Below are positions 31,922 to 56,072 of a stretch of 64,000 bases of DNA, piece by piece; position 1 is the first letter of the stretch; each line of letters starts with the position of its first letter. A program made the translations under genes and the position numbers. Source of the DNA: Hormiphora californensis (Eukaryota; Animalia; Ctenophora); the NCBI GenBank assembly GCA_020137815.1, contig CM035362.1:5146001-5210000 (forward strand), read 5' to 3'. The notes beneath the pieces are model-generated. The model was not told the DNA's origin and did no database searches. It saw only the letters and a list, made by a program, of their open reading frames with translations.

Positions 31922-32116
31922 CAATTGAGAGTTTTGAAAGTTGTGTGCTGTGTGTAGCAACTGGTATTTATACTGATTATATGTTTCTAAGATAAATTTG
32001 CTTGATTCTTGGCGGTCCACTGTTAAGCGATTATAATGATATTTTTATTCTTCAAATTCTTATGGTTCTTACTTTGGTGACCACTATCTTAACAATTCCC
32101 TTTCTCCCATCAAGGT

Positions 32117-34643
32117 ATGGCGAAAAGAAAACGTGAGAGTCCAACTAAAAATGTCACAAAATCAGCTGAACAGTTTGATATTCCTGCTCTCCTGAAAACG
32201 GAACAAATTGAGGTGGAAAGCAACATAAAACCTGAAATTCTCACACCCTTTACCGACTCCAAGAGTTCCAATATTACAATTTCTGCGGATAACATTTTAA
32301 CATTCACATGCGGTGGTTGTGGGGCATCAGGTATTCACCATTTGGGTTTAGAGTACCGACTAGTTAGAACAGCCACATTGGTGGAGGTTGGTACTCAAAC
32401 TGGTGATGAGTCAAGTTCCTCTGAGATTCCTGTCGAGACGTCCAATGGCATCTCTGCTATCTCGGCCCCGGTCCCGGTTATCCCAGAGAGCTCAGCAACC
32501 AACAACCCGGTAAGTGTGCAAATAATTAGGTTTTTACTTCGTGTTCTCTTTCCTTCACTTTTATAATCTTAGCTCTCCTAGACCGGCCCATCAAGTTGTC
32601 CTCTTTCTTTCTCTAAATCTCTAACCAATACACCCTCTCTATACCTTCTTATTATATTAGTAAATAAATATCTTCCTAGGCTGAAGGAAGATCGCCATCT
32701 GTACAGGCATTTGTTGATGACCTAAACAAAAAATTGGCGGCCTGCAAGGATGTACAGTCAGTAACTTCGTGTACCGATATCAGGATGGCGGTAAGTTTGT
32801 CATCAGGAACCGACCGAATCAGGTAATACTGGTCCCTGATTGGCTGATAACCAGTCACGTGACCTTAATAACGAGCTCTGATTGGTTGTTTACTTGTTTC
32901 GGTCGGTTTCTGTTTGTCATCATGAGTAGTAGGTAAAATAGCCCCGCTGTACCACCTAAAAGTGTGGCACACCATATTTGGGCATATGACGTCATCACAT
33001 ACCCAAATATGGTCATATGACGTCACATCACGTGACTTATCACGTGCTTTTATCATATCATGTGACATGATCACGTGTTTATCATGTGACATGGTCACAC
33101 GGTCACGTGACTTTAGTCATCGACTGACCAAATATGGTCATGTATGATGTCACCACATGATTTTCCTCGGTTGGCTGTCAGCTGTGCACCAGGTGTAGTA
33201 ATTGATCTGTGTATCAAGTTCGAGAGTGTGAGAGTGAGAGAGAGAGAGAGAGAAAAAGAGAGAGGGATAGATATTCAACATACTATGAAATAATCAAACA
33301 TGCTCAATTCAAATCACCTAATCCTTCTCTTCTCCTATCCTCTTAGCAACCGAAACATCCATGATGACCGAAAGAAAGACTCTGAATATCGAACAGCTTC
33401 ACCGGAAAGCCTTGTCAGCGGCGAGCAAAAATATAACCAAAAACTCGCAGAAATCATGGAAAGAAACTAAATCTTCCCAAAAAGAGGATCAAAACAGGTC
33501 ATATGATAAAATACCCGTTGGGGAAAATGATGGTGTATCTCTCTCTCTCTCGTTCAGCGACTGTGAATGTTCATTAATGATTAATGATCATTTTCAGATA
33601 ATTTTGGAGTGGAGACAAACACACAACTCTTCAAAAGAAACAAAAATTAATCGAAACTTTTCATATAACTTTACGAAAATGCAAAACCATCGATGTAGGA
33701 AAATCTCTCGAATCATCTTCTGAAAACTCAAAAAGCTTGTTCATATTATCACAAATTACAAACTGTATTTCACTCAAATTGACAAATCTCACTTTGAAAT
33801 AAGAAGGGTTTACAAATTCATAATGATTGTACCCCAATTTTTGCTCGAATGGGAACATAGCGAAAAATCTCGAGTCATGTTCATTTATTTGTCTATAGTC
33901 CGTGTATGCATGTGGTACAATGTTTGAATAGATATATCCAAGCTTTGCATGCCTCGGAAAGTCTTCTATTTTACCCGAAATTTTTGGTGGTAAAAGGTGG
34001 AATGGACTGTTTTCCATGTAAGTCTTAAAAAACCTCAAAACACTATTTTCACTCGTTGCAAATCCTTTAGTGGAATGACGATACTCCAGAGTACATACAT
34101 GTGTTGTTTCATCTGCAAAGTACTCTGGGATAGGCCAATGATCAGAACCATTCACCAGATTTTCCTTTTCTTCAGAGCTTATCGCCTTTTGCATTGCTAG
34201 TAGTAATTGTGCTCCGTTTCGATAATACCCAGGTGGAATTGAGTAATCTCTGGATTCATAATCCTGTTCCCTTTCGGATACCAAAAAGTGATTATTACCC
34301 TTGGTTACGTTAAATGTTGATGAAGGAGCGTGACTTATACTTTTTACAGCTACTTCATAGTCTCCATTCAAGTCTAATGCATTCTCCGATCGAAAGATAA
34401 ATTTACTGGGATTTTGTTTATAACTAGTAGCGATAAGGTACATGATTATAACTACTACTTGCATACGATTACATCCACGTTTCTTTTGAATTGAGTTTTA
34501 TGTGCTTAAATACTAATTACTCCACCATATTTGAACATATGAGGTCTACACATATCCAAATATGAACATATGACGTCACATGATCACGTGGTCATGTAAC
34601 TATGGTTCATATTTAGACATATGACGTCACCACATGGCATATT

Positions 34644-34732
<89 letters not shown>

Positions 34733-37700
34733 CAGAGACAGAGACAGAGACAGAGACAGAGACAGAGAAATAGAGAGACATCATACGAGATTCCGTGTGG
34801 GAGCGGTTCGTTTAGTGGACTGAGAGGGGGAGAGAGAGATAGAGAGATAGAGAGAGAGAGTTCCTTCTATTATATTATCATATTAATTATTGTATCCCTT
34901 TACATCTGTTCATTATCTTTTACTCACTCGACTTGATGTTGCTCTAGTTCTCTGTCTGCTGACCAAATGGATCCAATAACCCTTTTGATTTTGCTGGTTA
35001 TCTTCTTCATGCATCCTTACTTGACTAGACAGAAATCTGTGAAGTGTACAGTATGCGGAAAGACCATGAGGAAGGATACTCTTGGACGACACATGAAGAC
35101 TCATAATCCAACTGAAGAATGTCGTTTTTGTAAGAAACAAATTCGGGAGGATCGGTTGACTCACCATGAGACACTATGTCAAGATAAAGTCGACGAGAGT
35201 GTGTGTGATAGGGTTACAGGTGTTCATGAGCATATGGATGATTCAGTGGAAACACTCCCACAGTGCAGCTCAGTTTCTGGATTTTTCCGATCCTACGAGT
35301 TAAATGTGGAGAAAAGCATTGACTACGATAAAATAATTGAGGACACTTGTAGTGCTGTAAAGCACATCGTCACAGAGTCTGTCAAGAGACACCCGATAAA
35401 GGCACAGATCTCTATCTCTCTTTCCTTTTACAAAGATGTGGATGGTCAGAGAAATGGGTCAGAAAAAGTATTCCGATCACAGTGTGAACCCATAATAGCT
35501 GGTGACAATGTTGACGAGTTTCTCAAACGGGCAGCTGTGATCATTCGACATGGAATTGACGTATACGAACGATTTGGAAGTGGGTGGATTTTTGACAATC
35601 ACCAGTGTTCCAAACTTGAGCTGGCCAAATACTCACCACTATCGGGGTGTGGTTTTGTCACGCTCCCAAAGAAGCTGAGAGATATGCGATCGGTCTTAAA
35701 CATCCGTTCAACTGATAATCGTTGCTTCCTCTATTGTCTTTTGGCTCACCTATTCCCGGTAAAAAGTCATCCAGATAGGTATACAAAGTATCTGGACCAT
35801 GTACACAAAGTTGAAATGGGAGGTGTTAAGTTTCCTGTGAAACTAAGGGAAATTCGAAAGGTGGAACATCAAAACAATCTTTCTATCTCTGTATTTCAGT
35901 GGTCTAACGATGGTGGAGGTTCTGTTATACCCTTGAAACATGGTAGTGGAAAGGGTACCCAGATCGATCTCCTTGTTATCGAGGGTGGAAATTCATCACA
36001 CTACCTGTTGATAAAGAACTTCAACAACTTCATGAGACATCGAACTAAATACCACCACACCATGTTCTATTGTCGAAAATGCCTCCATGGGTTTGTCAAC
36101 AAGAGGAAACAACGAGATCATTCTACTCTATGCCTCCAGGGAATCAACCAGATTACCGTTATGCCTCAGCCGGGTGTTATCAGTTTTACAGAAAAACACA
36201 AGGGTGAAAAGAAGGCTTTCGTGATCTACGTAGACTTTGAGTGTGTTTTACAGAGAGTTGACTCTTCTGATTCCAACCGCTCGGTCACCAAGACGGAGAA
36301 ACACCTTCCATGTAGTTTCTCCATCGTCTCGTCTTCTGTTTTCGAGAACTACAACGAGGAGGAAATTGTCTTCTCGGATCCCGACCCAGCCAAAGTGACC
36401 CACCAGTTTGTCAGCGAGTTGCTGCGTATCTATACTACAATGATGGAATGTCAATCAACTAATGACTTTCCTATACACATGAGTGATCACGATGAGCAGG
36501 TGTTTAAGAATTCAATAAACTGTCACATTTGTGGTAAGGAACTTATGTGGGGATCGACAAAAAACTATCCTGTCAGGGATCATGACCACCGTCAGGAGCA
36601 TAACAACTTCCGGGGGGCTGCATGTAACATCTGCAACAGAAACTATTACAATCGTAGTCGGAAGGTTCCTGTTTTGGCTCACAATCTCAAAGGCTACGAT
36701 TTAAACCTTTTCCTGAGAGATCTAATACAATTTGTGTATAAGGAAGAGGAAGAGTTTGATGAAGTGGAGGGTCTCGACGAGGAGGATGAGCTCGGTGATG
36801 TGGACTTGGTTAATCCAAAGAAAAAGGACAGCATGTCCATCATCCCTGAAAACCTTGAAAAGATAAAGGCAATATTCACAAAAAAGTTCATTTTTCTTGA
36901 TTCTCTTGCCTTTCTATCCGCTCCTCTGACAACATTGGTTAAGAATCTCAAATCATCTGGACTGGAGAAGTTTCACCGCCTTCGTAAGAAATTCCCAGAC
37001 CATTTAGATATATTGACTGATAAGGGTGTCTATTGCTATGAGCATGTTCAAAAGTTTGAGGATTTGGAATTACCACATCTCCCTGCTAAGGATGCGTTCT
37101 ATAGTCATCTCACTGAGTCAAATATCACAGACGAGGATTACGTGCGAGCACAGACTGTTTTCAGAGAAATGAATTGCACCTCGCTCCTGGATTACATGAG
37201 AATCTATGTGTTGGTTGACACCCTCCAACTAGCTGACATATTTGAGAATTTTAGGGAGTTGTGTCTGACGTGGTATCAATTGGATCCAGTACACTACCTT
37301 AGTCTACCAGCATTCGGATGGTCAGCCATGCTCAAGATGACAGATGTCAACCTCGAAAAGATTACTGATATTACTCAATATACTTTCATTGAAGAAAGTT
37401 TACGAGGTGGGGTAACCACTGTGAATTGTCGTTACCACAAGGCCAACAATCCCTACCTGGATAACTATGACCCTCAAGTAGACACAACCTACATTCATTA
37501 CATCGACTGTAATAACCTGTGAGTGAGATATGATCTGAATTTACCTATACCTTATCCCAAACATTATCACATTTTTTATTACTTCATCGGTATAATTTAC
37601 CAACATCAACACTTGTATTTTCAGGTATGGTGATTCTATGAATCAGCCTCTACCAACTGGTGATTTCAAATGGTTGAAAAAAGAGGAGATTAAGGCGTTT

Positions 37701-40700
37701 GATGTCAACTCCACAAGAACAGATGGTGATAAATGCTATATGCTGGAAGTAGATTTGGATTACCCTGATGACCTACACGACAAACACACTGATTTTCCTC
37801 TTGCTGTGGAGGGGAAATCGATTGAGAAAGAGCAATTGTCAGAATTTAATAAAAATGCATTGGAGAGAAATGGGGATAGATTTATCAGGACAAGGAAACT
37901 CATCCCTGATTTGAAACCAAAACATAGGTAAGTTGGATGTGACATGAATTCTAAAATTGTAATATTGAAGTTTGAACAAGTTTGAACACCACTGGGTGAG
38001 AATATAATGACCTCTCTTTTCCTTGTTTTGTCAGGTACACCTGTTCACTGAAGAACCTACAGCTTTTTTTAAAGCACGGATTGGTCCTCATCATGATTCA
38101 CAGAATACTCTCCTGCACACAACAGGACTTCATGAGTCAATATATCCAATTCAACTCCAAAAAACGTCAACAATCAACCAATAACTTCGAGAAGGACTTT
38201 TTCAAGGTAAAGATCAACAAATACATTGAAGTTTTTTCTAATCTCTTAAAATTAATTCAATATTAACGTAACTTTTTTCTTTTCAGTTGATGAATAACTG
38301 TGTGTACGGAAAATTTATCGAATCTGTTCGGAAGCACACCGATGTTAAAGTTGCAACAAACGAGAGAACTGCCAACAAATTAACGTCAAAACCCCAGTAC
38401 ATGGGATACCATAGACTTGACGATGACATGGTCTTAGTACAGTGCTGTAAACAAAAAATTGTCCTTGATAGACCTATTGCATGCGGTTTTATGGTGTTAG
38501 AGAATGCTAAATTCACCATGTCCAATATGTGGTACAATGTGCTAAAACCACTTTATGGAGACAAAATAACCCTACTACTCAGTGACACTGATAGCTTCAT
38601 ATACTCGGTTAAAACTGAGGATGGCTATCGAGATTTGTTTAACATGCGGGAGATTATGGATTTAGCAGACTATCATCCGGACACACCCTTGGGATGTTTC
38701 AAGGATACAAGAAACAAGAAGGTTCCCGGAAAATTCAGCGATGAACTGCCTACTGAAATTATAGAGGAGGTAATCAGTTTAAAACCGAAGATGTATTCAA
38801 TCGCTACGAAAAAGCTGACATGCAACACCATACACACAGATGCAAATCACCAGTGTACCTCGAGTTGTACAATTGGTCACTCGGCACGAGCAAAGGGGGT
38901 TTCTAAGACTGCTCAGAGGAAAATTACCCACGATGACTACAAAAAGACATTGTTCGAGGGTATCACAACTACAGCTTCTAGCAGAGCGATCAGGTCATTG
39001 AACAATAATCTTTTTACTGTTAATGTTACAAAGCGAGCTCTGTCATCATATGATGATAAAAAGTATGTCTTGTCTAACGGTGTGAACACCCTTAGTTATG
39101 GACATTTTAGATTGAGATGATTTACTTTGTGTGACTTCCTTTTTTTCTTTTTCTTTTTTGGGAGAAAATGAAACAAATCATGTGTTTGTGTTGAAAGTTT
39201 AATGCTCAAGTGTTCTTAATATTCAATATTTTTCCCGAAAATGTAAAACTATGACAGTGGGGAAATCATTTTTAACTTTATTTTGAAAATTCAAAGATTG
39301 TTTCATGTGTATAGAGAGAGAGAGGGAGAGAGAGAGAGAGTGAGAGAGTGAGAGAGAGGGAGAGAGAGAGTTCTGAATTACAATGGAGTACCTTGGATAT
39401 AGACATAGAATATAAGTGTCAAAGTAGCACATTTTGACCAGGGAGGATAGCTGGGCCCCCTAAGGCGTCGAAACTGCAGGATTATCTTGTAGTGCGGATG
39501 TCGTGGGTTCGAATCCCACCGATGCCATCCCCGGCTGTTCTCCCCTTTTACTATAAAAAGCAAATAAAGATGAGATATAGTTTACTTTGAGAAATGTCTC
39601 CAGTAGCTTACATCACATCCGTGCTTCTTGTCAACTCATTCATTGTTCAGTTTCAGAATCCAAACTGTACACACTTTCTTTCGTTGTCCGGCAGTGATGA
39701 AACACGTCTAGAGTTACACCGAGCTGAGGATCTTATACAACTCGTAATTCACAACACTAGCTACAACCCTACTAAAATATAGTTCGACGCGACGCAACGC
39801 GCGATCGATGAACGATCGATAAACGATCGATAAACGATCGATATCGATCGTTTATCGATCGTTCATCGATCGCGCGTCGCGTCGAACTATATTTTAGTAG
39901 GGAATGTACAAATGTACACATTTATCTCAAATGGTACATTCTCGTTTGTATGGCCGTCAAAGTCAATCGATGGTGTTTCAATGAAACTTGTGCACAATAT
40001 TGGAATCTTTCATCAGCTAACATTTGACAGACTGACAATCCACTGTGATGTTATACATTTTCAAGGAGGTGATTACCAGGAGTATAACACAGAAGAGGAT
40101 GTGTATCAATGCAATCATACCTCTTCGAATAATATTATTCTCTATTGTCTGCCAGTGATTGTAATTTTCACTCTCATTATCGGGGGCAATATGCCAGATT
40201 TTGTGAAATTCTTCATTGCAAAATACAATCTAGTACTTAACGGACAACATACCGTGGCGCAACAGGAGACCACTATATAAGACCAAAATAACAATTTCAT
40301 AATTTAACAACTATGAATACATATTCTTTGTTAGATTATTTTGCTGGAGGATCGAATTCTGACTCGCGTTTATTCTGTTCAAAATGTACTATTCTCAAGC
40401 GATGTTGGAGACATAATGTAGTTGAACTACCACATCACAAATATCAACCTTTGAAGTGGGAAAGGATACCTCTGCGAAAACTCAAAAATATTCGCAGAAC
40501 GACCATATAAAAAGACCCTCTATGAATATAATACTCATTTCCAACTATGGTTGCTATTGATAACACAGAGTTTTATGATGACGTTTGGGGAAAAATTGGC
40601 TCCCTCATTAGATCATACGGAAACGTTCTTAGCTATGAGGCTACTTATAGCTTAACACACGATAGTTTTCGCTTTCCTGTCACATTACCAGACCAAATAG

Positions 40701-43700: not shown

Positions 43701-46700
43701 ATTGTAACCCTCTTTAGACTTTATGGGGAAACATGCCAACAAATGGGATTGTTGTTGATTTATCGACATATTCGCCACTACAGAAGAATACAAAAATGCA
43801 ACTTCACTCTGGTTCTCCAAAACATAATTATCAATATTTAGCTGATTAAGATATACAAGCTTAGATTCATCATCGTAATTACAGAAACCAAATATTCTCA
43901 TTAAAGTGTCATGTTCACCTCCAGTTATCAACTTAGTGGGTTTTGGTAGTTTTAGAACCACCTTACCAGGGTCAGGTACTTTGAAACTCGAGTCTATTTC
44001 ATTTCTTAAGCATACATCATGCATCGCCTTGACAATCTCACATGTGTTAGCATAGAAGCCAGGAACAATATTCAACTCTTCTGTAGCATCCACTTCAAAA
44101 AGTCGAAATGTATTATTTGATTCGGTGATATTGTAGGTTGGACCGTGGAATATCCCTTTTACTGCGATTTCAAAGTTGTCAGATAAGCTGATAGAGTCGA
44201 GAAAGTTGGACGAGAAACTACTTCGTCTTTGATTTTCGCTTGTTACGATTATATCCATTATTGATCAGAGCCTTTGTTGATTTTAAATGTTTGGTACTGC
44301 GGCGCTTTTTACTCTTTCCCAGCTTTGATTTCAACACAACTCCCAAGGTCCTTTTTATAGGGAGAATTTCAGTTGGAATGTCAAGAGATTTTTTCACTGA
44401 CCCGTCTTCAGCTATCAAACGATATCTCATAGTAGTGCAGGTAGGATAGGGAGTATAGTTTGTAGAATTGAACGAATTATGGATCCACCCTTTTGATTTG
44501 CCTTTATAGGAGCACGGGCATGTTTTCTTATGAAACTCCGATGACGCTTTAGTTTTTTAATTTCTCGTTCGCCCATACTTAAACGGCCATCCAAAATACT
44601 CTTGAAAAGGAGTTTCAGAGCTTTACGAAGGGAAGGTGTGTTTTCCAAAACAATCTGAATTTGAGCATTGTTCTTTCTGGAAAGTAATTTCATTACTGAA
44701 TGATGTCTTTTCAGTATCACAGGAATATGTTTGGGCATGATGTAAAGTAGTCTGTAGTTACAAGCAATTCTTCTGGAACTCTTGGATGAAACGAAAGTAA
44801 CACAAACTGGTATGCTCCGATATATTTATAGGCTTCCATGAGACGCCAATTGTCTTTTCCGAGTATTTGTCGTGCTAGAGTATTAATCTGTGAGAGGTTC
44901 CTCTTGTTTTTGAAAAGAATCATATATTGAGTATTCTGACTAATGAGACGATAATTCTCATTATTGAGAAACACACTGTGGGTAACGAAAATTGTTGTTG
45001 TCTGTTTGTGGTGTGACCCTGCTATAAAGTGTTGGGCCATTTCCTTGTTTAGTTCTAACATCAAGTCGTCTAGAATCAGCAGCTTTGGCCCGTCAAACTG
45101 ATCTATCACATCTAGTTTGAGTCCGTGTACAAATTCAATCTTTTGTTTGTTCTCACTGTTCCATGTGTCCATGAACGGTTGGTGCGCTGCATAGAGGTAG
45201 TATATCTTTTTTGGCATTGGTGAAATTAACTCCTCTCTCACAATTTTCATGATTGTGGTGGTTTTACCGCTCCCACTAGCACCAATAACAAGGATATTCG
45301 AGTTTGCAAGTAACCGCATGATAAGTTTGTAAAATAACACAATCAATCTACTCTTTTATATATCAAACATATCAGACTTGTCTACCCATCTATTCTCTGA
45401 TTCGGGATAGTCTTTGAAACTAACAAAATATTGTTCATGACCACGATGTTTTCTTGTCTTTAAAACTTTATCGATTGCATAAATTTGATTATCTACATCA
45501 ACTTTCTGGACCTCTGCCTCGTAGAAACTTCCCTGTAGTATCTCACCTGAAGAATCTTGTAATCGATATGTAACAGGATTTGTATCCCTCACCTCATCAA
45601 CAGTGAAAACTTCATAACTCCAAGTTTGTTCATACCCTTTCTGGAAGATATCTTTCATCCTAGAAACACGTACGGTGTCTCCAACTTGGAGCTTTGGGCG
45701 AGGTCGTGGGGGTTCGTTGGGGTATAAATTTTCACGCACCTCGTTTTCATTACTCTTGTTCACTTGGTTAGGCTTCATTTTGATAGCACGATGATAACTG
45801 TTGTTGTAGTTTCGAATCAGGTTTTCCAAAATGTCAACCCACCGATGGGATCCTTGGCTGGTGAAGGCACGATATAATTTTGATTTTATTGTTCGATTAC
45901 ATCTTTCAATAATAGCACATTTGCGATCTGAATAAACTGTGTAGGTGTCAATATTAAGTCTGTTAAAAAGATCAATAAGTACTTTATTCTTAAACTCTCC
46001 ACCACCATCAGTCTCAAACTTTTGTGGTTTCAATCGAGTGAGTAATGATTCCAACTCGTCATATACACTCTTTGCAGATTTATTCTTTAATTTGAAGGCC
46101 CATAAACGTTTGCTAAATGTGTCAATAACCATCAATATCCATTTGAATCCATTGTTTTGTTTGGAGTATGCACTCATATCAACTAAGTCGGCTTGAAAGT
46201 GGTAGTTTATCCCCCTGGAATAGATGCGTCTGTAGCGTCTTGGTTTGCGAACAGGTTTATGAAGTGTATACGGATCGCTTTTCAATAGAGCCTTTTGAAC
46301 TACAGATCTTTTCAGTCCTTTAATTTTTTCTTTTGTTGATCGATAAAAACTTTCTTTTCCTGCGAACGCCCCATGTGACACAGGATTTATGTATAACTTT
46401 TGGATCTTGTCTTTAGGTTTTTGTTTCCTTCGACTTTTCCTTTTTCTCATCATGTCGATAAACGTATGAATTATACATCGTGGGTTATGTTTTCTTCCTT
46501 TTATAACAGGAGCAACAAAACGTGTTTGGAAGTTTAGGAAATGATACTTATTAATTATTCCATGAATCTGATTGGTTAATAGGTAAGACACTATAAAAAC
46601 ATTAAAAACCTGACTCTACACGTCACTTCCGTAATGTTGTACTTTGAAAATGTTTGGATAGCTGCACTGACTGATAGCATGGTTCGGAGAGTGTGTAATA

Positions 46701-49700
46701 TTTCGGAGAAATTATGTCCTGCACATAAAGCTGGCCTGAAATCTCCAATTTTACACCATTGTCAACAAGACTCACTGCTGGATAAAATCGGAAAGCACTT
46801 CCATACTGCTCAAGGGGAACTCTTGAGAAATCTTGAGAAGGAATACGAGGTGATATCTTCAAAGTTACCCAAGTCAGATAGCCCCGAGGATGATAAAAAG
46901 TGTTACATTAGTTGTGGAAGGAGTTTTCTGTTAACTGTTACACCAGAAGCCTTGTATTACGGGCGATATATGAGTGAAGACTCTGACAAGTTGATTTACA
47001 CCAAAACTTCAAAAAAGAGGAAGTTGAAATGATCAATTATTATAAATATCTTCATTTTTCTAATACCTTGCAATGAATCGTGTTTTTCCCTTCTTCTTTT
47101 TTGAATACAAAAGTTCATTATAAGGTCATTATAAAGATCATTATAAAATCTCTTTTTCTCTCACTTTCTTTCTCACGTCCTCTTAACTAGTACCACATAA
47201 GATAGAGAGAGAGAGAGAGGGAGAGAGAGAAGGAAAAAAAATCTCTCTCTCTTTTTCTCTCTGTCTCGCTCTCATTCCACGTTCAGCACTCTTTTACAAT
47301 CACACAACCATGAGTCACGTGACTCATCATAAATAGTTAGGATCGTTCCTGGAGTTGGTTGTTCATTATAAGTTCTGTGTTATAAAGATCATTATAAAGT
47401 CTCTCTCTCTCTCTCTCTATCCCTCTTTCTCACGTCCTCTCTCTCTCTCTTACTCGTTCTCATTCTACGTTAGACAGACATCATACGAGATTCCGTGTGG
47501 GAGCGGTTCGTTTAGTGGATTGAGAGGGGGAGAGAGAGATAGAGAGATAGAGTAAAAGTGTATTGTCATTAGGGAGAATCGTTCCTGGAGTTGACTGATT
47601 CCATGAGTCACGTGTTCAACACTTTAGGTATTATATAACCAACCATCTAGCTGACCTCAACTAAACTTCTCTTACCCATCCTAACCTCTGTGCCGAACAT
47701 TACTGCCGAACATGCCTGTTGTGTCTCTGATTGTTTACCTCATCGAAGAGCATCAGAGGACGAAAAGCTACCGGTAAGTCATGTCTTGAATGTTCTCATC
47801 AGCTTTTTTCATAGTGAGATTTACAGCTTTCGACTTGCTTTTTTTTTTCTTTTTTTTTTTTCCGCGCTCGGTTGAATACCGTAGGTATTCACCTGGATGT
47901 CTTTTGCAAAAAGGCATAGCTGTTAAGAATTCGAAAATTATACACAGTGTTGCTTGTAGTGGAAATACGATTTCTGTCAGAAACATGTTGTTCCCTATTT
48001 CGGTGTTGATGATCGTCAGACCCTAGTGTTGAATCGATACTGTATTCTCACTACAAGCACCCCTGATACTAGAGAGATGTCACAGCCACAAAACTAACTG
48101 TTTTTTTTTATCCCTTTCAGAAAGATTTTTACGGATCAAGGAATCTACATATGTTTTGACAAGTCTATCAAGATAGAGACTAACAAGAAGGTAGTTTGTG
48201 TGGTAAAGAAAGCGAAGCCCCCCCAGAGATCCAATATCATTTTGGTAAGAATCAACTCACCCTAGAACAGCTTTCTACTTCTTCTAATTGTTGAGTTCAC
48301 CATACACCTCATTTTGACTGTTTTTGAGTCCTACCCCTTATGAGTTTGGATATGGTCATCGTCACACCCCCTATCCGTGACTTGCCAGAACCCGAATTTG
48401 ACAACTATTTTTTTCCCCTCAGTGCGTTATTCTGTCCAAAGATGTTACTGGGGAAAGTAGTGACGACGACGATGAAGGTAGTGACGAAGGTGCGCTTTCA
48501 AACGAGACACTTGATCCAGATGCAGACTGCGATTCAACGAAGCGAGATGACAGTGCCGGCAAACGCCGAAAGATCTTGATTGAGTGAGACTGTGGGTGTT
48601 AATTGTTAACTGTGGGTGTGTTCAGGCATGTAGGGGAAGTTTTGAAAGTGGTGGGGCCAAATTTTTTTTTGGTCACGTGATATGACATACACTGACTTTT
48701 CTATTGAAAATTCGATTAGATCGGGCGAAGCGATAGCGGAGTCCGAGAAAATTTTTCGGTTTTTAGGGCAAAAAGTCATAGTTTTTGTCTAATCATGAAA
48801 AGAACTGGGGCCATTTCCTGAAAAGTGCTGGGGTCATGGCGTACCCTGCCTCCCCTTCCCCTACATGCGTGGGTGTGTTTCACAAACAACAAAAAAAAAA
48901 AATAAATAAAATAAAAAAAATAAAAATAAACTCTTGCATGAGTCTGTTTAGAGATATTTGTGGGATATGTGAGGTCACCTATTATAGGGGACCAGGCGAT
49001 TAGGACCAGGGGATGTGCAGCGTCACTCAATGATACAAATTATATAGCTGTAGTGTTTAGTACCCGTTTACTGATGATAACGATCGTGTTATTACCTGTA
49101 GGATGACAGTGACAACATTGGCTGTCACTAGTAGTGTTCTGTACAGTATTCTCTCTCCCAGTAATTTACACCGTGGTGAACCTTGTTGTTTAACTGTCTA
49201 TGTACATGTGCACTGGTATCCATCACTCATTTCATAGGGTGGGGAGGTGGTTGGAGGCCCGGTGGGGGTCCTGATGGTAGCTGGATGTCTGCCAGCGATA
49301 CAGCTGGGGGTGGAAAGTTGCCTGGGTGGAAGTTATGTGGTTGGTGCTGGAAATGAACATTTTCAGTCCGTCCGGAAAGATATGGATTTTGGTACGATCC
49401 AATGTTTGGTGTGGAACGGACACTATCTGGTGTGGAAACCCGTGAGGAGTCACGGGGAATGTGCTCTTTGCTGAACACATTGATCTCTGATTCCGATGTA
49501 GCTGTCCGTGGTGGTGTTTGATGGGGAGACTGACTTCGGGGTACAAACTGTGCTACATCGACATTTAACAGACTAGAAGTGATTCTTTCCTCTCCGTACC
49601 GACTAGAAGTGATTCTTTCCTCTTCGTACCCCTCATCACTCTTAGATCTCTTGTAGGATGGTGATGAGATGGATAAGGTTTGGGAAACGTTGGCTGGGGA

Positions 49701-50013
49701 GACACCATCATTGCTGGCCGTGGAGAGAGAGAGAGAGAGATACACCATCATTTTCCCCAACGGGTATTTTATCATATGACCTGTTTTGATCCTCTTTTTG
49801 GGAAGATTTAGTTTCTTTCCATGATTTCTGCGAGTTTTTGGTTATATTTTTGCTCGCCGCTGACAAGGCTTTCCGGTGAAGCTGTTCGATATTCAGAGTC
49901 TTTCTTTCGGCCATCATGGATGTTTCGGTTGCTAAGAGGATAGGAGAAGAGAAGGATTAGGTGATTTGAATTGAGCATGTTTGATTATTTCATAGTATGT
50001 TGAATATCTATCC

Positions 50014-50044
<31 letters not shown>

Positions 50045-53000
50045 ACTCTCACACTCTCGAACTTGATACACAGATCAATTACTACACCTGGTGCACAGCT
50101 GACAGCCAACCGAGGAAAATCATGTGGTGACATCATACATGACCATATTTGGTCAGTCGATGACTAAAGTCACGTGACCGTGTGACCATGTCACATGATA
50201 AACACGTGATCATGTCACATGATATGATAAAAGCACGTGATAAGTCACGTGATGTGACGTCATATGACCATATTTGGGTATGTGATGACGTCATATGCCC
50301 AAATATGGTGTGCCACACTTTTAGGTGGTACAGCGGGGCTATTTTACCTACTACTATCATGTTCATTTAGAAATATTCGTTTGCCTCAATATATCGTTTG
50401 TTTTTGTTGTTTTTGTACATGACAATCTATTTCACAGATTACTCCTGCTGATGGCAAGTTGAGGTGCACCCTCAGTTCCTGTAAACACAAAATTGGTATT
50501 AAGGTGCCACCGCCACCATACACGACCAATGGCAATATTACAAAACCATTCGCTAACATGAGAAAGGCGATCAGAAATCACTTTAGCAGTGACGACCACA
50601 TCAGGAACTGTCAGGCTGCGGTTGCCGTGCCTGCAATCATGTCCAGGTCGAAGCTGGAGATCCTTAAAAAACTGCTGCTGATTGTGTACACCAACATTAA
50701 ACACCGGGTTTCATTCGAGTAAGTTCTTATTACCGTCTCTCAAATTGAAAAAAAAATTCTAACACACATAAACATAGTTAGTTATTATTGTTATTATTAG
50801 CTCTTCCTGCTTAAAACTACCCTCCAATCCTATCAGGCTAGGTATTCCACATGTGATGATAATCGATGTACGGAAACTACGTTACCACAATGTGGATGAT
50901 GGGAATCGATGTAGGGGATCAAGACCTTTCTAAGGAATTTCCCAGAAAGGCACTTCCTATATTCCACGACCAAATCTCCACTGCCGCCAAGAAGAAGCTC
51001 ATCACCATTTGCGGAAGTTTTATTGTACCCTTGGCGGTGATAATCGATGGGGTTACCTCCCACCAGATGTGAGTTGATCAAGCACCATCTTTTGGGCCTA
51101 AAAACAAGAATAACGGTTCTCTGATGATTGAAATATTCTTTCTTATTTAGCAGGCAGCGTGTTGTGGTGGCAGTGCGATATCTTGATCTGGAAGGAGATG
51201 GACCCCTAGTCCGCATTTTGTATGCTGGCCATCCTGTCAACACCAGCCACACAGATGATGCAGCGGTAGTGGTACCATGCCTCCAGAGGATGATACCCGA
51301 TACAACATCCCTGTCCAGGTCTTTGAAATTCTTTATCACTGATGGCCACTTGATAAGTACACGGGTAAGTTTCAATCGTTTTAGACTCAAGATTACAAGC
51401 CTATATATGGAATACTGTATCGTAAGCTTCTAAGCTTTGCTCCTTCATCAAACAGTTTTGCGTTCAGTTTAAGGACGAGATGTGTAGGAAATTGGGTGTA
51501 TCGGTGAATGGCAGGTGCTTCGGTTGGGACTACGGCCATGCAAACCAATCCACCACCAAGGAGGCAATGAACTCGGCGGAGGGGTTGACATTTAAAAGGG
51601 TTGTGGAGGAGTCTTTGGAGATCACATCATTCCTGAGGTAAAGTGCAGTTGTACCCAAAATAGATATTCGTAACTGTAGATCTACTTCAAAACTGATAAT
51701 ACTTTATCAAGCAATTACTTTCTCAGGAAAAATGATGTACATGAGGAAGTCAAAAAAGAAATGAAATTTGTTCATACCGACAGAACCATTGTCCACGATT
51801 TTTATAAGAATTGGAGCACGAATGTCAAGCGTAAGTGTGGGTTAACATATATAATAATGGGTGCTAAGGTCGAAATACTTTGCCCTACTATACGTACAGT
51901 TTGTATTTAATTACAATTCATTTTCAGTGTTGCAGAACCGTGTTTCGGCAGGCACAGACGTGGCCAAGGCCAGGGCATACCTCGCTCTTATGGCATCGGA
52001 TGAGTGGAAGTCGAAGCTGCTGTTCATGAAGGTTATTGTTTGTAAATTTTATAACTCTATGAGACGTGATAATTAGCACTAGCTGAGTCGCTGTTCAGAC
52101 TTCAATTACAGTTCTCTGTATAATTTCTCCCGATCAGGATTTCTTGTCCATGCTCAAGAGATACTCGGTAGCATGGCAGGACAACACAGCGCTCATTGGC
52201 CGGGCGGAGGAAACGAGGAACCAGTTACTTTTTGTTCTGGATAACATCCAGCTGGCTACTCCGTCCGAGGGGACCATGGCGCTCTTCCCCACCTTCCTGG
52301 AGAACAGGTAAACAACCAATCAGAACTCGTTATTTAGGTCACGTGACTGGTTATCAGCCAATCAGGGACCATGGTGCTGTTCCCCATGGAACAGGACAGG
52401 TCCTTGTTAACACAGCAGCAATGTGAGTTACATTTGGTAGTAGTTATAGTTCATATATATATTATATGGGGAGAGCACTAGTACTGTACCTTTTTCTTGA
52501 TGCTGATGCTATATTTGATATATTTGATACATATTTATTTGGGATCGATGGGATAGCCAGTACGGAGTGCCGTAATTTATAATGTGAAGCACCCAATAAT
52601 TTATTATTTTCAGCTCTACCTGGTCTCCTCCACAAGTTCCGGCAAGACAGGCCCAAGAGAGGATGGATAATGTTGTGAACCAGGCCCAGCAGTTCATCAC
52701 TAGATTTAAGACTTGCGTGGAACACACCTGGTTCACACATAGTCTGTGGGGGAAGGATAATCATTTTAGTTCTAGGTACTTGATATATATATAATCATAT
52801 GGTGAGATTCCTATCATAATTCCTAGAATCGATCTTTTGTAAATTGCTATCTCTCTGTTTCTCTGTTTTCCCTCTCTCACATGATATCATTCAGATCCAT
52901 TGAAGAATTAGGGAAATTCCACATGGAGCTCGAGAACGACATTGGGACCCCGATTGTGGACGTTGCTGCCGGACCACTTTCCAGATGCAGCACCTGTAAC

Positions 53001-53863
53001 CGGGTAGTAGAAGGCCAGTTAAAGAGGGAGAAACATGCCAAATCTCATCAGCCTTCCTCCACCATGGCGCCGGTACCCAGTGTTGCGGCTACATGGACGA
53101 GGCCTACAACACCGCCCGATTTGAGTCAGCTGAAACTTCTGTCGACCTACCCACTCCAGGTTAGTTAAATGAAACTAAGGCTTTCCTGATCACGCACAAT
53201 TTAAATTTCAAACATTTCAAAATCTAACTTATCAGGTCAACCAACTGAACATGAATGTTCTAAGAACGACGCTGAAGAGGGTTGCATCAGCTAAGGGAAC
53301 AACCGACCTCGGCACTGCCATTAAGGCATTCCTTCAAGACCAAACAGCTGTTGCTACGGTCCATCCTGGCTGCCTGGAAGTCCTGCTGGTGTCCTGTTCC
53401 ATTGGGGGGTCTGAGTCAATAGCTGAGACAATAGGTGGTGACCTGGAATGGTACCATCAGAACCGATACTTCAACTTTGGAGATGGTGTTAAAGACGAGA
53501 TGTACGTATCTTAACTAATAACAGTATATTTTGTGCGGTCAGAGAAATTGGATTTACTTTTTTCAGGAAGTACATATCTTTCTTTGACAGAAAATATTCC
53601 ATACATTGAACATGTTCAATTGTTTCAGGTTACAGAAAGAGATATTCATCAGACGAAACGGGCCACCTATCGTCCATTCCCAAGATCTAATAGACAAGGT
53701 GGCCAGAAAGATGCTGAGCGATGGAACCACTAGAGTCGCCACTACAGCCTACCTGATCCCGAACACAAATGGTACACCACACTCGGTCTATCAAAACACT
53801 TTGAGAAAGGGGAAAGTAGTTGAAAAGAAACTGAAGGAGCCTGCCAGTGCATTTAAATTTTAA
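32117..53863 (+). CDS. Chimeric gene: ZF-family N-terminal exon fused to a multi-exon hAT-type transposase. Exons 32117-32509, 32680-32790, 50438-50718, ~50865-51068, 51151-51364, 51468-51637, 51727-51830, 51928-52031, 52138-52307, 52366-52422, 52614-52775, 52895-53159, 53236-53501, 53629-53863
   Basis: Phase-consistent GT-AG junctions except a missing acceptor at ~50865. hAT motifs: C-x4-C..H-x5-H finger, IIDG, VRY, ITDG, WDYGH (DxxH), D..S..WQ, SESIAET, IRRNGP. Confidence 0.75.
32804..32912. mobile_element. 109-bp hAT-type MITE (CAGGAACCGACC family)
   Basis: TIRs plus 8-bp TSD TTTGTCAT (32796-32803, 32913-32920). Confidence 0.9.
32925..33551 (+). repeat. Maverick left TIR
   Basis: Reverse complement of 49727-50355; dense TGACGTCA and CACGTG motifs. 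Confidence 0.95.
33661..34464 (-). CDS. Minor capsid (penton-like) protein 1
   Basis: L.LNGDYEVAVKSI, IPPGYY, YIYSNIV, F.NP.Y..V and VLHFRK motifs typical of Maverick pentons. Confidence 0.8.
   Translation of the reverse strand: MQVVVIIMYLIATSYKQNPSKFIFRSENALDLNGDYEVAVKSISHAPSSTFNVTKGNNHFLVSEREQDYESRDYSIPPGYYRNGAQLLLAMQKAISSEEKENLVNGSDHWPIPEYFADETTHVCTLEYRHSTKGFATSENSVLRFFKTYMENSPFHLLPPKISGKIEDFPRHAKLGYIYSNIVPHAYTDYRQINEHDSRFFAMFPFEQKLGYNHYEFVNPSYFKVRFVNLSEIQFVICDNMNKLFEFSEDDSRDFPTSMVLHFRKVI
34967..39120 (+). CDS. Protein-primed DNA polymerase B, 4 exons: 34967-37518, 37625-37927, 38035-38206, 38287-39120 (1286 aa spliced)
   Basis: Exo motifs DFEC and HNLKGYD; endonuclease-VII-like CHICG..RDHDH..GAACNICN insert. 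Splicing restores DCNNLYG and FFKLMNNCVYGK; SDTDS catalytic motif. Confidence 0.95.
39223..39305 (-). pseudogene. Relic 3' end of a third penton-like gene
   Basis: NDFPTVIVLHFREKY* resembles the penton-1 end RDFPTSMVLHFRKVI*; truncated upstream by a GA microsatellite. Confidence 0.55.
39441..39549 (+). ncRNA. tRNA-Leu-derived Pol III small RNA with a long terminal stem (VA-RNA-like)
   Basis: TATAAG at -30; TAGC A-box start at +8; B box GGTTCGAATCC 39506-39516; TTTT terminator 39546-39549; 15-bp terminal stem with G-U pairs plus internal stems. Confidence 0.75.
39594..40280 (+). pseudogene. Putative type I membrane glycoprotein (182 aa once the MITE is removed)
   Basis: Deleting 39767-39902 plus one AA fuses ORFs 39594 and 39912 in frame. 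Hydrophobic N-terminus, four N-x-S/T sequons, TM segment IILYCLPVIVIFTLIIGG. Confidence 0.7.
39767..39902. mobile_element. 136-bp palindromic MITE (CCC...GGG ends, 2-bp AA TSD)
   Basis: CCCTACTAAAATATAGTTCGACGCG...CGCGTCGAACTATATTTTAGTAGGG with a CGATCGAT core. Confidence 0.85.
40313..40510 (+). CDS. Small Cys/His protein (Maverick accessory)
   Basis: ATG-initiated ORF with CxxC..C..H; preceded by a TATA box. Confidence 0.5.
   Translation: MNTYSLLDYFAGGSNSDSRLFCSKCTILKRCWRHNVVELPHHKYQPLKWERIPLRKLKNIRRTTI
40547..40981 (+). CDS. Hypothetical Maverick accessory protein
   Basis: 144-aa ORF preceded by a TATA box; C-terminal CDCEMC. Confidence 0.6.
   Translation: MVAIDNTEFYDDVWGKIGSLIRSYGNVLSYEATYSLTHDSFRFPVTLPDQIAPIIAGIDRGYNGNPVRIEIGYFWENEGDNRRGLGTHPHLLTVADIVQKDIVRMIKPSRTISVISLAFIRVLVFKLDEVDEDYDICDCEMCSI
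41039..41344 (+). CDS. Small accessory protein with a putative N-myristoylation/palmitoylation motif
   Basis: Starts MGLCWS (MGxCxS); C-terminal CDCGRDC. Confidence 0.55.
   Translation: MGLCWSTKPSFDEDAWESLSPTKIPFADEFIEKQEVITRVREANQKMLAWEIPEEKCQHVKFQHDFHHFYPPVYDQYSPISVKSFDPADIECDCGRDCGHS
41369..41815 (-). CDS. Adenain-like maturation cysteine protease
   Basis: GEHWIAV, FMDSYG and Q...SNACGYY catalytic motifs. Confidence 0.92.
   Translation of the reverse strand: MKSLTTKTFDDIKTNHFKGAFAYDEVSDLPDGDWSIIVNTSPSSKPGEHWIAVVYKGGITYFMDSYGRKLNRNETTFTHEFVDTMKGIVQGRVIYNNKILQQLTSNACGYYALYFVERLSIESLKQTLQPFSGNLKQNDMFVYKYCLS
41841..43136 (-). CDS. Major capsid protein (double jelly-roll)
   Basis: 431 aa next to the protease; PTQTGI, ISFTVP, NPF and FDLT.D motifs typical of Maverick MCP. 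Confidence 0.88.
   Translation of the reverse strand: MTKYVKSSEGLPTQLHLWSPMSTQTGIIATKQIDVYPNNSIDSSDTISFTVPGLERHMLDSIDVYTEMRVLSGDGTVPADRVNVSTAPHLGAILWRNVEVSSGGVSLTQSYDNSYAMFKFWDDCIHHGRGERPYLLRKEGLLLDDVGDKTESEDTTYYPEDTKIEPKNKNGRIRAQRIARGETMFLCSKLNVTLFNQATLLPSDLEFQVQLTKNYDETILMSATTDTSKVKLDRVFLRCTYQQPRDDVINLLEQKLAKRNAIYHADKKVMSIHSIATSVVTIDNLFNGTLPYFFYVGIQDRSAFGRNRNKNPFSLHMVKSVQLYVNGVEYYPQMLKMTDHDETNMVVALGEATGARKDNFIMHHFRVYPALGFDLTQDKTQNQHGMNLNKSGNVRIVLELLKQSTTDKVLFTLAYYDRIIEVDKNRQLYAI
43181..43492 (-). CDS. Small virion core / membrane-active protein
   Basis: Protease-type site QRGG/G followed by amphipathic helix IGGFLKKLFRSV; basic C-terminus. Confidence 0.7.
   Translation of the reverse strand: MRQLYYPSPRATADFDRALDADLGVYHNQRGGGIGGFLKKLFRSVAPIGKTFLQKGFEIAKPGLQTAGNELVNAAGQYAARQIETGTNKLTKKIGKRKRDALS
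43554..44258 (-). CDS. Minor capsid (penton-like) protein 2
   Basis: ISLSDNFEIAVKGI, IVPGFY, FLYSSVV and NPMYRP motifs; paralog of 33661-34464. Confidence 0.8.
   Translation of the reverse strand: MDIIVTSENQRRSSFSSNFLDSISLSDNFEIAVKGIFHGPTYNITESNNTFRLFEVDATEELNIVPGFYANTCEIVKAMHDVCLRNEIDSSFKVPDPGKVVLKLPKPTKLITGGEHDTLMRIFGFCNYDDESKLVYLNQLNIDNYVLENQSEVAFLYSSVVANMSINQQQSHLLACFPIKSKEGYNYHEVINPMYRPLSVHAFTDLHFRFTDIEGKLFKFAILPTVIILNIQKR
44218..44430 (-). CDS. Small basic protein
   Basis: K/R-rich 70-aa ORF overlapping its neighbours in the morphogenesis block. Confidence 0.5.
   Translation of the reverse strand: MRYRLIAEDGSVKKSLDIPTEILPIKRTLGVVLKSKLGKSKKRRSTKHLKSTKALINNGYNRNKRKSKTK
44427..44738 (-). 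CDS. Small virion protein with a QKGG cleavage-type site and hydrophobic tail
   Basis: NQKGG/SIIRSILQTILPILPALL; conserved position downstream of the ATPase. Confidence 0.7.
   Translation of the reverse strand: MPKHIPVILKRHHSVMKLLSRKNNAQIQIVLENTPSLRKALKLLFKSILDGRLSMGEREIKKLKRHRSFIRKHARAPIKANQKGGSIIRSILQTILPILPALL
44717..45346 (-). CDS. A32/FtsK-like packaging ATPase (likely ATG at 45319)
   Basis: Walker A GASGSGKT; Walker B LLILDD; GSHH motif. Confidence 0.93.
   Translation of the reverse strand: MIVLFYKLIMRLLANSNILVIGASGSGKTTTIMKIVREELISPMPKKIYYLYAAHQPFMDTWNSENKQKIEFVHGLKLDVIDQFDGPKLLILDDLMLELNKEMAQHFIAGSHHKQTTTIFVTHSVFLNNENYRLISQNTQYMILFKNKRNLSQINTLARQILGKDNWRLMEAYKYIGAYQFVLLSFHPRVPEELLVTTDYFTSCPNIFL
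45356..46591 (-). CDS. Retroviral-like (rve) integrase with a C-terminal chromodomain
   Basis: FQADLVD, TDGGGEF and IERCNRT (DDE); chromo motif YFVSFKDYPESENRWV. Confidence 0.95.
   Translation of the reverse strand: MSYLLTNQIHGIINKYHFLNFQTRFVAPVIKGRKHNPRCIIHTFIDMMRKRKSRRKQKPKDKIQKLYINPVSHGAFAGKESFYRSTKEKIKGLKRSVVQKALLKSDPYTLHKPVRKPRRYRRIYSRGINYHFQADLVDMSAYSKQNNGFKWILMVIDTFSKRLWAFKLKNKSAKSVYDELESLLTRLKPQKFETDGGGEFKNKVLIDLFNRLNIDTYTVYSDRKCAIIERCNRTIKSKLYRAFTSQGSHRWVDILENLIRNYNNSYHRAIKMKPNQVNKSNENEVRENLYPNEPPRPRPKLQVGDTVRVSRMKDIFQKGYEQTWSYEVFTVDEVRDTNPVTYRLQDSSGEILQGSFYEAEVQKVDVDNQIYAIDKVLKTRKHRGHEQYFVSFKDYPESENRWVDKSDMFDI
46634..47032 (+). CDS. Hypothetical protein with a Cys/His cluster and C-terminal NLS
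   Basis: 132-aa ORF after CTATAAAA; C..C..H..HHC; KKRKLK. Confidence 0.6.
   Translation: MLYFENVWIAALTDSMVRRVCNISEKLCPAHKAGLKSPILHHCQQDSLLDKIGKHFHTAQGELLRNLEKEYEVISSKLPKSDSPEDDKKCYISCGRSFLLTVTPEALYYGRYMSEDSDKLIYTKTSKKRKLK
47712..48587 (+). CDS. Spliced 3-exon gene (47712-47773, 48121-48244, 48423-48587), 116 aa, SSB/OB-fold-like with acidic tail and NLS
   Basis: GTAAGT/GTAAGA donors, polypyrimidine-CAG acceptors and an open frame across both junctions; TATA at ~47632. Confidence 0.65.
48623..48871. mobile_element. hAT-type MITE inside the Maverick
   Basis: TIR CAGGCATGTAGGGGAAG/CTTCCCCTACATGCGTG; 8-bp TSD GGTGTGTT (48615-48622, 48872-48879). Confidence 0.85.
49227..49917 (-). CDS. TIR-initiated Ser/Pro-rich protein, frameshifted at a (TC)9 tract
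   Basis: ORFs 49708-49917 and 49227-49775 join in frame if the tract is (TC)7, as in the left TIR. Confidence 0.45.
49727..50355 (-). repeat. Maverick right TIR
   Basis: Inverted copy of 32925-33551; I see one substitution plus microsatellite differences. Confidence 0.95.
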
Positions 53864-54016
53864 TTTTTTATGTGTGCGTCTGTGTGTGAGAGAGTGCGTG
53901 TCTGTGTGTGAGAGAGTGCGTGTCTGTGTGTGAGAGAGTGTTCGTCTTCGTGCGAGAGAGTGCGTGTACATGCCTGCGTATTTACCAGGTAGCTCGGTTT
54001 TTATTAAATTTTATCT

Positions 54017-54699
54017 GTTTATGAAACCCGATAGTTGATTTATCAGTCGTTTGAACATTTTACGCGCACACGTTAACTGCGAGATGGGGGATTTAACACC
54101 CTGCTCGCTCTTTATCAGACCAGTGCCCATTTTCACGCGTTTCTCTTCATTTCCATAACATGCGTGTAATTTCCAAGTAATGAAAATGTGTGTAAACACA
54201 CAGTTCTGTCAATAACAGAGGGGGAACACATCTGCAAACACTTTTCAATGTATCTCTCTCATCAAGAGCAACAATAGTCGCATTCCATTCGTTTCTCTCT
54301 CTCATTCTCTCTTTTACTGTTCAATATCTCTCACTGTGTGTTTTGCCCCTAATCTTTTCTCTCTCTTTCTCAAACATGTTAGGAACAGTAGACACTAAGT
54401 CTACACACATTTGAGAGTGTCTGTTGACTATTTGCCAGTAGTCCTTGTGTGTTACCCCTTGTGTTGTGTCTCTTATTTGTGTAATTACTATCGGGTTTCA
54501 TAAACTATGAACGTTTGTTAGCCTATCGCGTTATAGGTTTAAATCACCCCCCCTCACCCTCGGCTGGCGCCTCGGGATCGGCGTCGGGATTTAAACCAGT
54601 TTAATCGCCCTGCCGGGCGATTAAACTCCAGTTGCTGTCCCCAGCTCGCGCTGGGAACAGCCAACTTGATAACGCGCCAGTCTACAAACGTTCATAGTT
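54017..54699. mobile_element. Small non-autonomous element with an internal complementary region and multi-hairpin end (tyrosine-recombinase-type?)
   Basis: 54487-54518 is the exact reverse complement of the end+start junction, sharing GTT. Confidence 0.6.
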
Positions 54700-54983
54700 C
54701 ATGTAATTTATTTTATAACCCTGGGACAATAAAAGAATCAGTGATGATGATAAAAATCCTTCAAAATATATGACCTCCATAGATTGTTTGTTTATCTTAG
54801 TTCTGACTACCTTATTACTCCAATGAAGCGAATCTCAAATCAACTATCGAGCATCAATGGAAACCCCCTATCCTGGCCTCTCTTTCTTCCAAATTCCCCC
54901 TTCCAGATTTGACTAAACATTACTCTTTTAACTTGTTTACCGATTCGTAAAATCTAAACTTTCTCTATTCTATGCAGGATATA

Positions 54984-56072
54984 ATGGCAAAAAGTAAACC
55001 TGACCGACCAAGAGCTGGTAGTTCAGAAAGTCCCGCCACGACAGCCGATGGAAAATTTGAAATTCCTCCCCTTCTGAAAACTGAACCAATATACGTGGAA
55101 ACTCCCTGTCCAGTATTCAAGATTCAAACAATACCAGAGGTAGATGAGAACGATATTTTATTCAAATGTGATGGATGTGGAAAACAAGGGAGTTGCCTTC
55201 TGGAATCAGGGTATAGACTTGTTAAAACCGCCATTTTGGTAGAAGTTGGAACTCAAACTGGGTGCGATGAAATTACAGTGGATCCTGTAAAGATGGAAAT
55301 TACTGATCCTCTTTACCACGACTCAATTCCTAGCACATCAGCTGCTTTACCACTAATTGGTGAGTTTTGGAATGTCTTTTTTTCATTGTGTTTTTTAGGT
55401 AGATATCCTCAATGTTAAATTCTAAATTATCTTATTTTTTCAGATGATTTGAATACAAGTTTGTGCTCAGATGAAGGAGAATCTGGTGGTGAGGAAGAGG
55501 TAAGCAGCTCTGAAGATGACATGATGTTGGGACTAAAAGAGGAGACACTCGGAGATTATAGTGAAATAGAAGAAGGAGTTCTGCAGAGTTCTTCCCGGAT
55601 TCCCACCTCTGATCCAAATATCCCTATTTCCCAGTCACAAATTCTACCTCGACAAACTGACCATGACCAACCGACTACTTCCTATCCTGATTTTTGTCAG
55701 ACATCTGCCAGGAATAACGCTGATCCAATAAATAAGCCTCTACTTTCTTTCCTGTATGGGTCTCCATATAATCAATCAGGTCCGGAAGAGTCGTATTCTC
55801 CTCAAACTGTGAGCAATCGAACCTCGCTGGCAATAGATTCTCCTGAAGAAAGTGGGCCGAACGCTCGTTACCACTGTCAAATTATGCGGTGCTCAGTTGT
55901 TACATCATCGGAGAAGGACCTGTTCGAGCATGTTAGAATTGCTCACTCAGATAGGAAATACCGTTGCGATTCTTGTCCAAAGGCGTTTATGTATCTAAGT
56001 GAGCTTACTAAGCACAGCATGATGGTCCATAGTGGAGATAAACCTTTCCAATGTGACGAGTGTGGATGAATT
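54984..56072 (+). CDS. Divergent C2H2 ZF copy 6 (exons ~54984-55359, 55444 to the gap), truncated by an N gap
   Basis: Same N-terminal domain (FKCDGCG, YRLVKT, VEVGTQT), acidic linker and first fingers. Confidence 0.75.

Follow-up and report, generated by a model that had tools for sequence, protein, structure and literature searches.

In a 64-kb stretch of ctenophore DNA (hereafter the window, meaning the whole stretch analysed), the N-terminal part of a C2H2 zinc-finger (ZF) gene is followed in frame by an intron-rich hAT-like transposase gene. The explanation that we favor, with about as much confidence as reserve, is a probable host-transposase fusion that arose by DNA rearrangement and not by splice capture, and of which the present copy, judged from its sequence, is a null allele. 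Alleles that do not carry a frameshift found in exon 4 of this copy would, with the splicing predicted here, encode one hybrid protein of ~890 residues.

The predicted gene lies on the forward strand and extends from an ATG at 32117 to a TAA at 53861-53863. It comprises 13 exons and 12 introns; exons 2-13 are phase-consistent and all 12 introns are GT-AG (24 splice sites), a count that replaces the 13 junctions, 12 of them canonical, of the original prediction. Exon 2 (32680-32790, 37 codons) has an internal ATG at 32785, situated 11 codons before the first finger cysteine, and exon 3 (50438-50718) encodes a finger-like motif (C-x4-C-x32-H-x5-H) followed by a helix; by eye the motif appears TTF/BED-like, with no Pfam match. 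The first catalytic Asp (51046-51048) is in exon 4 (50837-51068), the second (ITDG, 51341-51343) is in exon 5 (51151-51364), and exon 6 (51468-51637) contains a W-D-x-x-H motif with its His at 51537-51539. Exons 7-10 (51727-51830, 51928-52031, 52138-52307 and 52614-52775) encode a helical insertion domain. Inside that domain, exon 11 (52895-53159) adds a second, C2H2-like finger motif (C-x2-C-x12-H-x3-H, 52986-53048), of which the CxxC and one His are common to the relatives described below. Exon 12 (53236-53501) holds the presumed catalytic Glu (SESIAET, 53425-53427), and exon 13 (53629-53863) an NGPP motif and the stop codon. The motifs IIDG, ITDG, WDYGH, SESIAET and NGP are thus present in the order in which they had first been read. 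Contigs from a second sample and from a second species extend over exons and introns 3-13, and in the window copy the reading frame of the predicted spliced gene runs from 32117 to the end of exon 3 without a stop.

The downstream gene is very probably a hAT-like transposase, as its sequence motifs and the structural model of a relative both suggest. A HMMER scan with exon 12 yielded four relatives, and follow-up searches added a Mnemiopsis leidyi protein (KAL5268770.1, P0017) and eight more; the M. leidyi protein is the only named relative, in agreement with the non-bilaterian origin proposed at the outset. The relatives align to residues 275-891 of the spliced model (E 1e-18 to 1e-30, identity 26-36%; the 41-aa P0001 reaches 76%), which confirms the exon chain from exon 4 on. 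Common to them are Asp324, Asp395, W-D-x-x-His426, Glu791 and NGP, in model numbering and with the catalytic roles assigned by pattern. These proteins (ENA/Logan, P0001-P0054) fall into clusters of up to 10 near-identical members, and P0001-P0003 terminate where intron 12 falls in the predicted gene. None of the 54 matches model residues 1-275 (the ZF part and exons 2 and 3), and being gene fragments they leave their N-termini unseen; likewise, an exon-3 search among longer proteins found no match in 40 candidates. Pfam families for hAT, BED, TTF and hAT dimerisation gave no match in 13 single exons, which are short, or in 14 relatives, members of a distant family.

Structural comparison points in the same direction. 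For the relative P0025, which matches the window model at E 4e-20, an AlphaFold model built on a 13-row alignment (mean pLDDT 45) has Hermes (8edg_A) as its best match of 48,161 chains (Z 7.0, rmsd 2.5, 93 residues aligned; the next row has Z 5.9), a Z that is middling and lies in the range that the tool calls common. Hermes is the best match specifically for the helices that follow DxxH: P0025 residues 172-297 lie on Hermes 272-371, and His168 of the P0025 WDGAH motif would lie on Hermes His268 if the four preceding residues are ungapped. The published catalytic residues of Hermes include D180, D248 and E572 (PMC6027215), and H268 is described as the active-site residue of a C/DxxH motif that precedes a large helical insertion domain (PMC4763223). 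The order D, D, C/DxxH, helical insertion, E is one that the predicted gene has in common with Hermes (PDB 8edg, 8sjd). The RNase H-like region of the P0025 model has a pLDDT under 50, and Foldseek on this model gave no match at E 0.001, with Hermes at rank 23 (E 0.6). A C-terminal model (P0024, pLDDT 53) gave generic helical matches, Hermes being absent among the 50 matches listed; PDB sequence searches with three queries returned nothing under E 0.09, and ESM Atlas searches with P0004 and P0017 returned no usable feature match and structure rows that were all below the bar. Metagenome scans gave 0 of 425 and 1 of 442 stretches, and the one (locus L001) was rejected as a relative, its 45-column gapped match with a stop being judged a chance one.

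Unlike Hermes, to which it is ~18% identical, the predicted protein has an N-terminal finger that is not a Pfam BED domain and the extra CxxC..H finger-like motif in its insertion domain. At the level of sequence, an RW pair (Hermes R318/W319) is not seen in exon 7, nor in the relatives P0022, P0023 and P0025. Terminal repeats also differ: a 12-nt scan of 31920-32700 against 53864-54980 for terminal repeats or a target-site duplication gave a single A/T-rich match with two mismatches. The gene thus appears hAT-like in sequence and, with no terminal repeats flanking it, is not a mobile hAT element at this place. We take its TTF-like finger, helix and C-terminal S-x-A-x-x-E ... NGP to resemble domesticated hAT proteins of the ZNF862/KIAA1586 type. 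ZNF862 is a KRAB-hAT fusion. The gene has no sequence or Pfam match to the ZNF862/KIAA1586 group, and the resemblance is a lead.

Upstream, the gene begins as a member of a tandem array of two-exon C2H2 ZF genes with ATGs at 25680, 27283, 29262, 30205, 32117 and 54984. Copies 1-4 occupy 25680-31921; copy 5 supplies the start of the fusion gene; and the more divergent copy 6 (54984-56066) lies directly 3′ of the transposase gene, cut by a 100-N gap at 56073. Identity among the tandem repeats is 75-92%, and copy 5, which differs from the other copies at a dS of 0.22-0.32, is a paralogue in its own right; it no longer has a Cys that copies 1, 2, 4 and 6 retain. In copy 3 (29262-29992), an internal deletion has brought exon 1 up against the finger array in the wrong frame. 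Between the stop of one copy and the ATG of the following one lie 196-211 bp, an AG stands two bases ahead of every ZF-copy ATG, that of copy 5 included, and no AATAAA is found between copies 4 and 5. This spacing and the placement of the AGs fit leader trans-splicing, and the copies from 25680 to 32117 are probably an operon-like, trans-spliced cluster. In Hormiphora, leader trans-splicing is reported on 56% of Iso-Seq reads (PMC8527503); the only 16-nt match to the published leader in the window is at 18731.

The part contributed by copy 5, as defined by paralogue alignment, is its N-terminal 110 codons (32117-32447), mostly low-complexity in sequence. It includes KRKR at 32123, LKTE at 32192, IKPE at 32225, a CxxC at 32309-32320 and VGTQTG at 32387. 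We take KRKR to be a nuclear-import-like basic patch and LKTE and IKPE to be psi-K-x-E SUMO-type sites. VGTQTG may be a TQT anchor of the LC8 type, judging by its letters, and the literature on this motif notes that many TQT peptides do not bind (PMC6607443). The best Pfam match in exon 1 has E 0.15, with no KRAB or other recognised regulatory domain; what had been called an N-terminal domain is therefore a stretch with no Pfam match above threshold.

The join itself lies inside exon 1. In blastn, the similarity of copy 5 to the earlier ZF copies is unbroken from 31226 to 32447, and blastn and alignments agree that it stops at 32446-32447, after which 32448-32803 is unique within the 64-kb window, just as the original prediction had described a paralogous sequence turning unrelated at 32447. 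The non-ZF tail of the exon (32448-32509) ends in a GT donor at phase 0, where the comparable paralogues (copies 1, 2, 4 and 6) have phase 1 in four of four cases. None of the three frames of this 62-nt tail contains a stop, and for exon 2 the one frame without a stop is that set by the ZF ATG; shuffles were stop-free in 9.5 of 100 cases. Both junctions on which the predicted link to the transposase depends, 32509/32680 and 32790/50438, are GT-AG and phase 0, as had been proposed, and in the predicted gene the C2H2 array is indeed replaced by the transposase open reading frame. That exons 2-13 agree in phase is a property of the transposase gene itself, so only the frame at 32447 speaks for fusion, and a breakpoint would be in frame by chance in one case out of three. 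No repeat or shared word spans the switch, and the rest of ZF copy 5 was not found downstream within the window. The presumed-RNA run X11 matched the window on a short repeat only.

Most of the distance between exons 2 and 3 is taken up by a 17.4-kb insertion (32925-50355). Mavericks, or Polintons, are defined by long terminal inverted repeats, a 6-bp target duplication, an integrase, an ATPase, a protease and a protein-primed polymerase. The sequence of the insert in intron 2 makes it such an element: it has 629-bp terminal inverted repeats that are 99.4% identical, a 6-bp target duplication, and Pfam matches to an integrase with a chromodomain (rve+chromo; rve E 2e-10), a P-loop ATPase and Peptidase_C5 (E 0.0014). 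Its presumed polymerase was recognised by eye only, in three open reading frames (34937-39117) separated by introns or breaks, where the Pfam match is Endonuclease_7 (E 3e-4). The element is polymorphic, with an empty site in X1, X2 and X5 and an occupied site also in X2 (runs that are described below), and the presence of both versions in one sample indicates a recent insertion. Evidence for the empty site comes from loose contig ends before 50356 in X1, X2 and X5, which read like the left flank in the window; intron 2 without the Maverick would be 210 bp. That left flank ends in a common short interspersed repeat (32804-32915, found also at 52303-52371, 58299, 58555 and 60540), so the link between exons 2 and 3 is supported and not proven.

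The most consequential feature of the sequenced copy lies at the start of exon 4. The window has seven AGs between 50738 and 50934, and with any of them as acceptor exon 4 would not be in the transposase frame. Contigs of four of 11 sequencing runs were aligned on 50340-50990: X1 and X2, which are one sample and perhaps the one from which the window comes; X5, which is another sample and study; and X7, from a second species (organism B). Those of X1, X2 and X5 match the window to 50837, one base past the AG at 50835-50836, and then have 10 letters in place of the 38 of the window at 50838-50875 (net +28 nt in the window); in X7 an AG connects 50829 with 50876, and the frame is likewise preserved. 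The acceptor of exon 4, previously reported as missing at ~50865, is therefore a canonical AG at 50835-50836, with the frame kept in the contigs of X1, X2, X5 and X7. A non-AG acceptor near 50862-50865, which we had considered, was dropped once the contigs of other runs showed this AG, and a micro-exon reading of exon 4 was dropped on the same comparison of contigs.

In the window copy the frameshift leads to a stop at 50931-50933, and the sequenced copy is, by its predicted 293-aa product, a null allele. The replaced segment contains 12-nt and 10-nt copies of nearby exon-4 sequence (51038-51049 and 50904-50913), which suggests a templated DNA-repair scar. The extra 28 nt may also be an assembly error; no contig of X1, X2, X5 or X7 aligned on 50846-50867, and contigs drop variants and had records filtered out, so the window letters are neither confirmed nor rejected. 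The frameshift is absent from the other copies and therefore looks recent. Other disruptions include an insertion at 50936-50939 in X1 (among the variants listed, 40 of 54) and an extra nucleotide at 52268 in one X5 contig (among the variants listed, 40 of 330). X2 has at least three different versions of intron 3; if that sample is one animal, these imply more than one locus, and the intact versions may not be alleles of the copy in the window.

Both halves of the predicted protein appear to be under purifying selection, and either signal may predate the join. Against a neutral expectation of 0.23-0.30 for the synonymous share, the changes private to copy 5 in the host part number seven synonymous and three replacement (binomial p 0.002-0.011), or five synonymous of six when two edge codons are left out; the private synonymous changes in copies 1, 2 and 4 are 7 of 22, 0 of 2 and 3 of 10, respectively. 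Compared with copy 2, the host part of copy 5 has a dN/dS of 0.16. In the transposase, 14 of 29 exonic differences are synonymous (among the variants listed, 40 of 330, leaving out 11 intronic rows), and on the branch of the window copy, where X1, X5 and X7 agree against the window, the figure is 13 of 20, hand-picked among the variants listed. Between exons 3-4 of the window and those of the second species (X7), 12 of 24 differences are synonymous. Mobile transposases are also under selection.

It is worth considering these observations in light of the ways in which such a gene structure could come about. The DNA join could be real and yet mean nothing, being a recent, unselected scar of rearrangement that is in frame by chance and that leaves a decaying hAT behind a truncated ZF gene. 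We consider this unlikely, while recognizing that a great deal is consistent with it: chance would give the frame one time in three, ZF copy 3 of the same cluster has undergone an out-of-frame rearrangement, three independent disruptions (the +28 nt, 50936-50939 and 52268) occur among few samples, a Maverick is tolerated in intron 2, and the X2 versions of intron 3 raise the possibility of extra loci. Against this, synonymous changes outnumber replacements on the window-copy branch, 13 to 7 in the transposase and 7 to 3 in the host part; none of the 24 splice sites and none of the D/D/H/E residues has been lost, and the frameshift looks recent. A neutral join would be nothing more than an ordinary rearrangement of a tandem cluster that is unstable.

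Another way to read the same DNA is as two separate genes, with the transposase translated from the ATG at 32785 after addition of a spliced leader at the acceptor of 32679, and with ZF copy 5 a dead or short upstream cistron. The commonness of leader trans-splicing in ctenophores (56% of Iso-Seq reads; PMC8527503) would make this plausible, as would the 196-211 bp spacing of the ZF copies, the AG before each ATG, the lack of AATAAA between copies 4 and 5, and the position of the exon-2 ATG 11 codons before the first finger cysteine. Yet the 35 codons ahead of that ATG contain no in-frame stop and agree in phase with the consensus donor at 32509, and their translation would require the ZF ATG; we regard separate genes as quite improbable, and it may be that fused and separate forms of the transposase coexist. 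Least probable is an assembly chimera at 32447. Tandem ZF repeats that are 75-92% identical, a heterozygous genome and the 100-N gap at 56073 are circumstances in which such an error could occur, but copy 5 is a distinct paralogue (dS 0.22-0.32), the switch has no repeat or shared word across it and falls in frame ahead of a consensus donor, and the right half of intron 2 joins the repeat at the end of the window's left flank in three runs.

Returning to a fusion by DNA rearrangement, the events may have been as follows. A hAT gene would first have inserted among the ZF copies; through a later deletion or repair, its first coding exon would have become attached to ZF copy 5, with loss in the same step of the ZF fingers and of the left end of the element. 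The transposase would thereby have come under the expression signals of the cluster, probably by way of a trans-spliced leader on the AG before the ATG. Without terminal repeats the gene is predicted to be unable to move. The transposase part would be expected to bind the ends of its own hAT family, with the host part adding the nuclear-import-like basic patch, the two SUMO-type sites and a putative TQT (LC8-type) dimerising motif; the predicted protein would most likely be a DNA-bound regulator or competitor at hAT ends, and with the catalytic triad kept, it may also cut in trans. The reverse event, a transposon that captured a ZF exon, was rejected: the 900 bp that precede the ATG are still homologous to the array, and terminal repeats were not found. 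It is doubtful that this is a fixed, expressed fusion common to at least two comb-jelly species, arisen by rearrangement within a trans-spliced cluster and placing a regulatory ZF-family N-terminus on a catalytically competent, 12-intron transposase of an undescribed hAT subfamily with a second zinc finger in its insertion domain; if it were, the route by which KRAB-transposase genes became new transcription factors would have evolved independently, by another mechanism, in the sister group of all other animals.

It is informative to compare the predicted gene with host-transposase fusions that are already known. In tetrapods, where zinc-finger genes are known to have given rise to new transcription factors by capturing transposases, 94 cases are reported, 23.4% of them involving hAT elements, with KRABINER as an example; the usual capture there is by a transposon-borne splice acceptor (8 of 9 cases), and KRAB-transposase fusions are described as repressing at cognate ends (Cosby et al., bioRxiv 10.1101/2020.05.07.082677). 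The analogy to KRAB-transposase genes drawn by the original prediction holds for architecture: here, too, the N-terminal part of a C2H2-ZF gene stands in frame before a transposase, the finger array is replaced, and the transposase shows signs of purifying selection. It fails for mechanism and for the host domain. In contrast to the KRAB-transposase genes, the two parts meet at a DNA breakpoint within exon 1 (32447, 62 nt before the donor), with no capture of a splice acceptor; the host part, a defined domain in those genes, is here devoid of Pfam domains; the transposase has 12 introns and its triad; and the gene is from a ctenophore, is known from DNA alone and is frameshifted in the sequenced copy. 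A survey of transposon-derived factors that includes two ctenophores reports FLYWCH expansions, the word "fusion" being absent from the article's text (PMC10027918). Among the papers listed by literature searches there was no ctenophore ZF-hAT fusion, and a deposited genome annotation may already hold the gene. Apparently, then, this is a known kind of event in a new lineage. If the fusion is true, it would extend transposase capture to the earliest-branching animal lineage and add to its modes an intra-exon rearrangement onto an intron-rich element, and the segregation of intact and null versions, together with a polymorphic Maverick, would offer a natural test of the importance of the gene.

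The window holds several further elements. Within the gene, a short repeat in intron 9 (52308-52405) is absent from one X1 contig (among the variants listed, 40 of 330) and is a polymorphic insertion. Between the transposase gene and ZF copy 6, a small element with 15-bp inverted ends (54505-54700) is possibly a MITE, and past the 100-N gap a reverse transcriptase open reading frame (RVT_1, E 8e-19) occupies 56486-57700. Far upstream of the ZF cluster are two large palindromes, at 5997-7564 and 9612-14563, the latter with 2-kb arms that are 96% identical and that surround a satellite with a 32-bp period.
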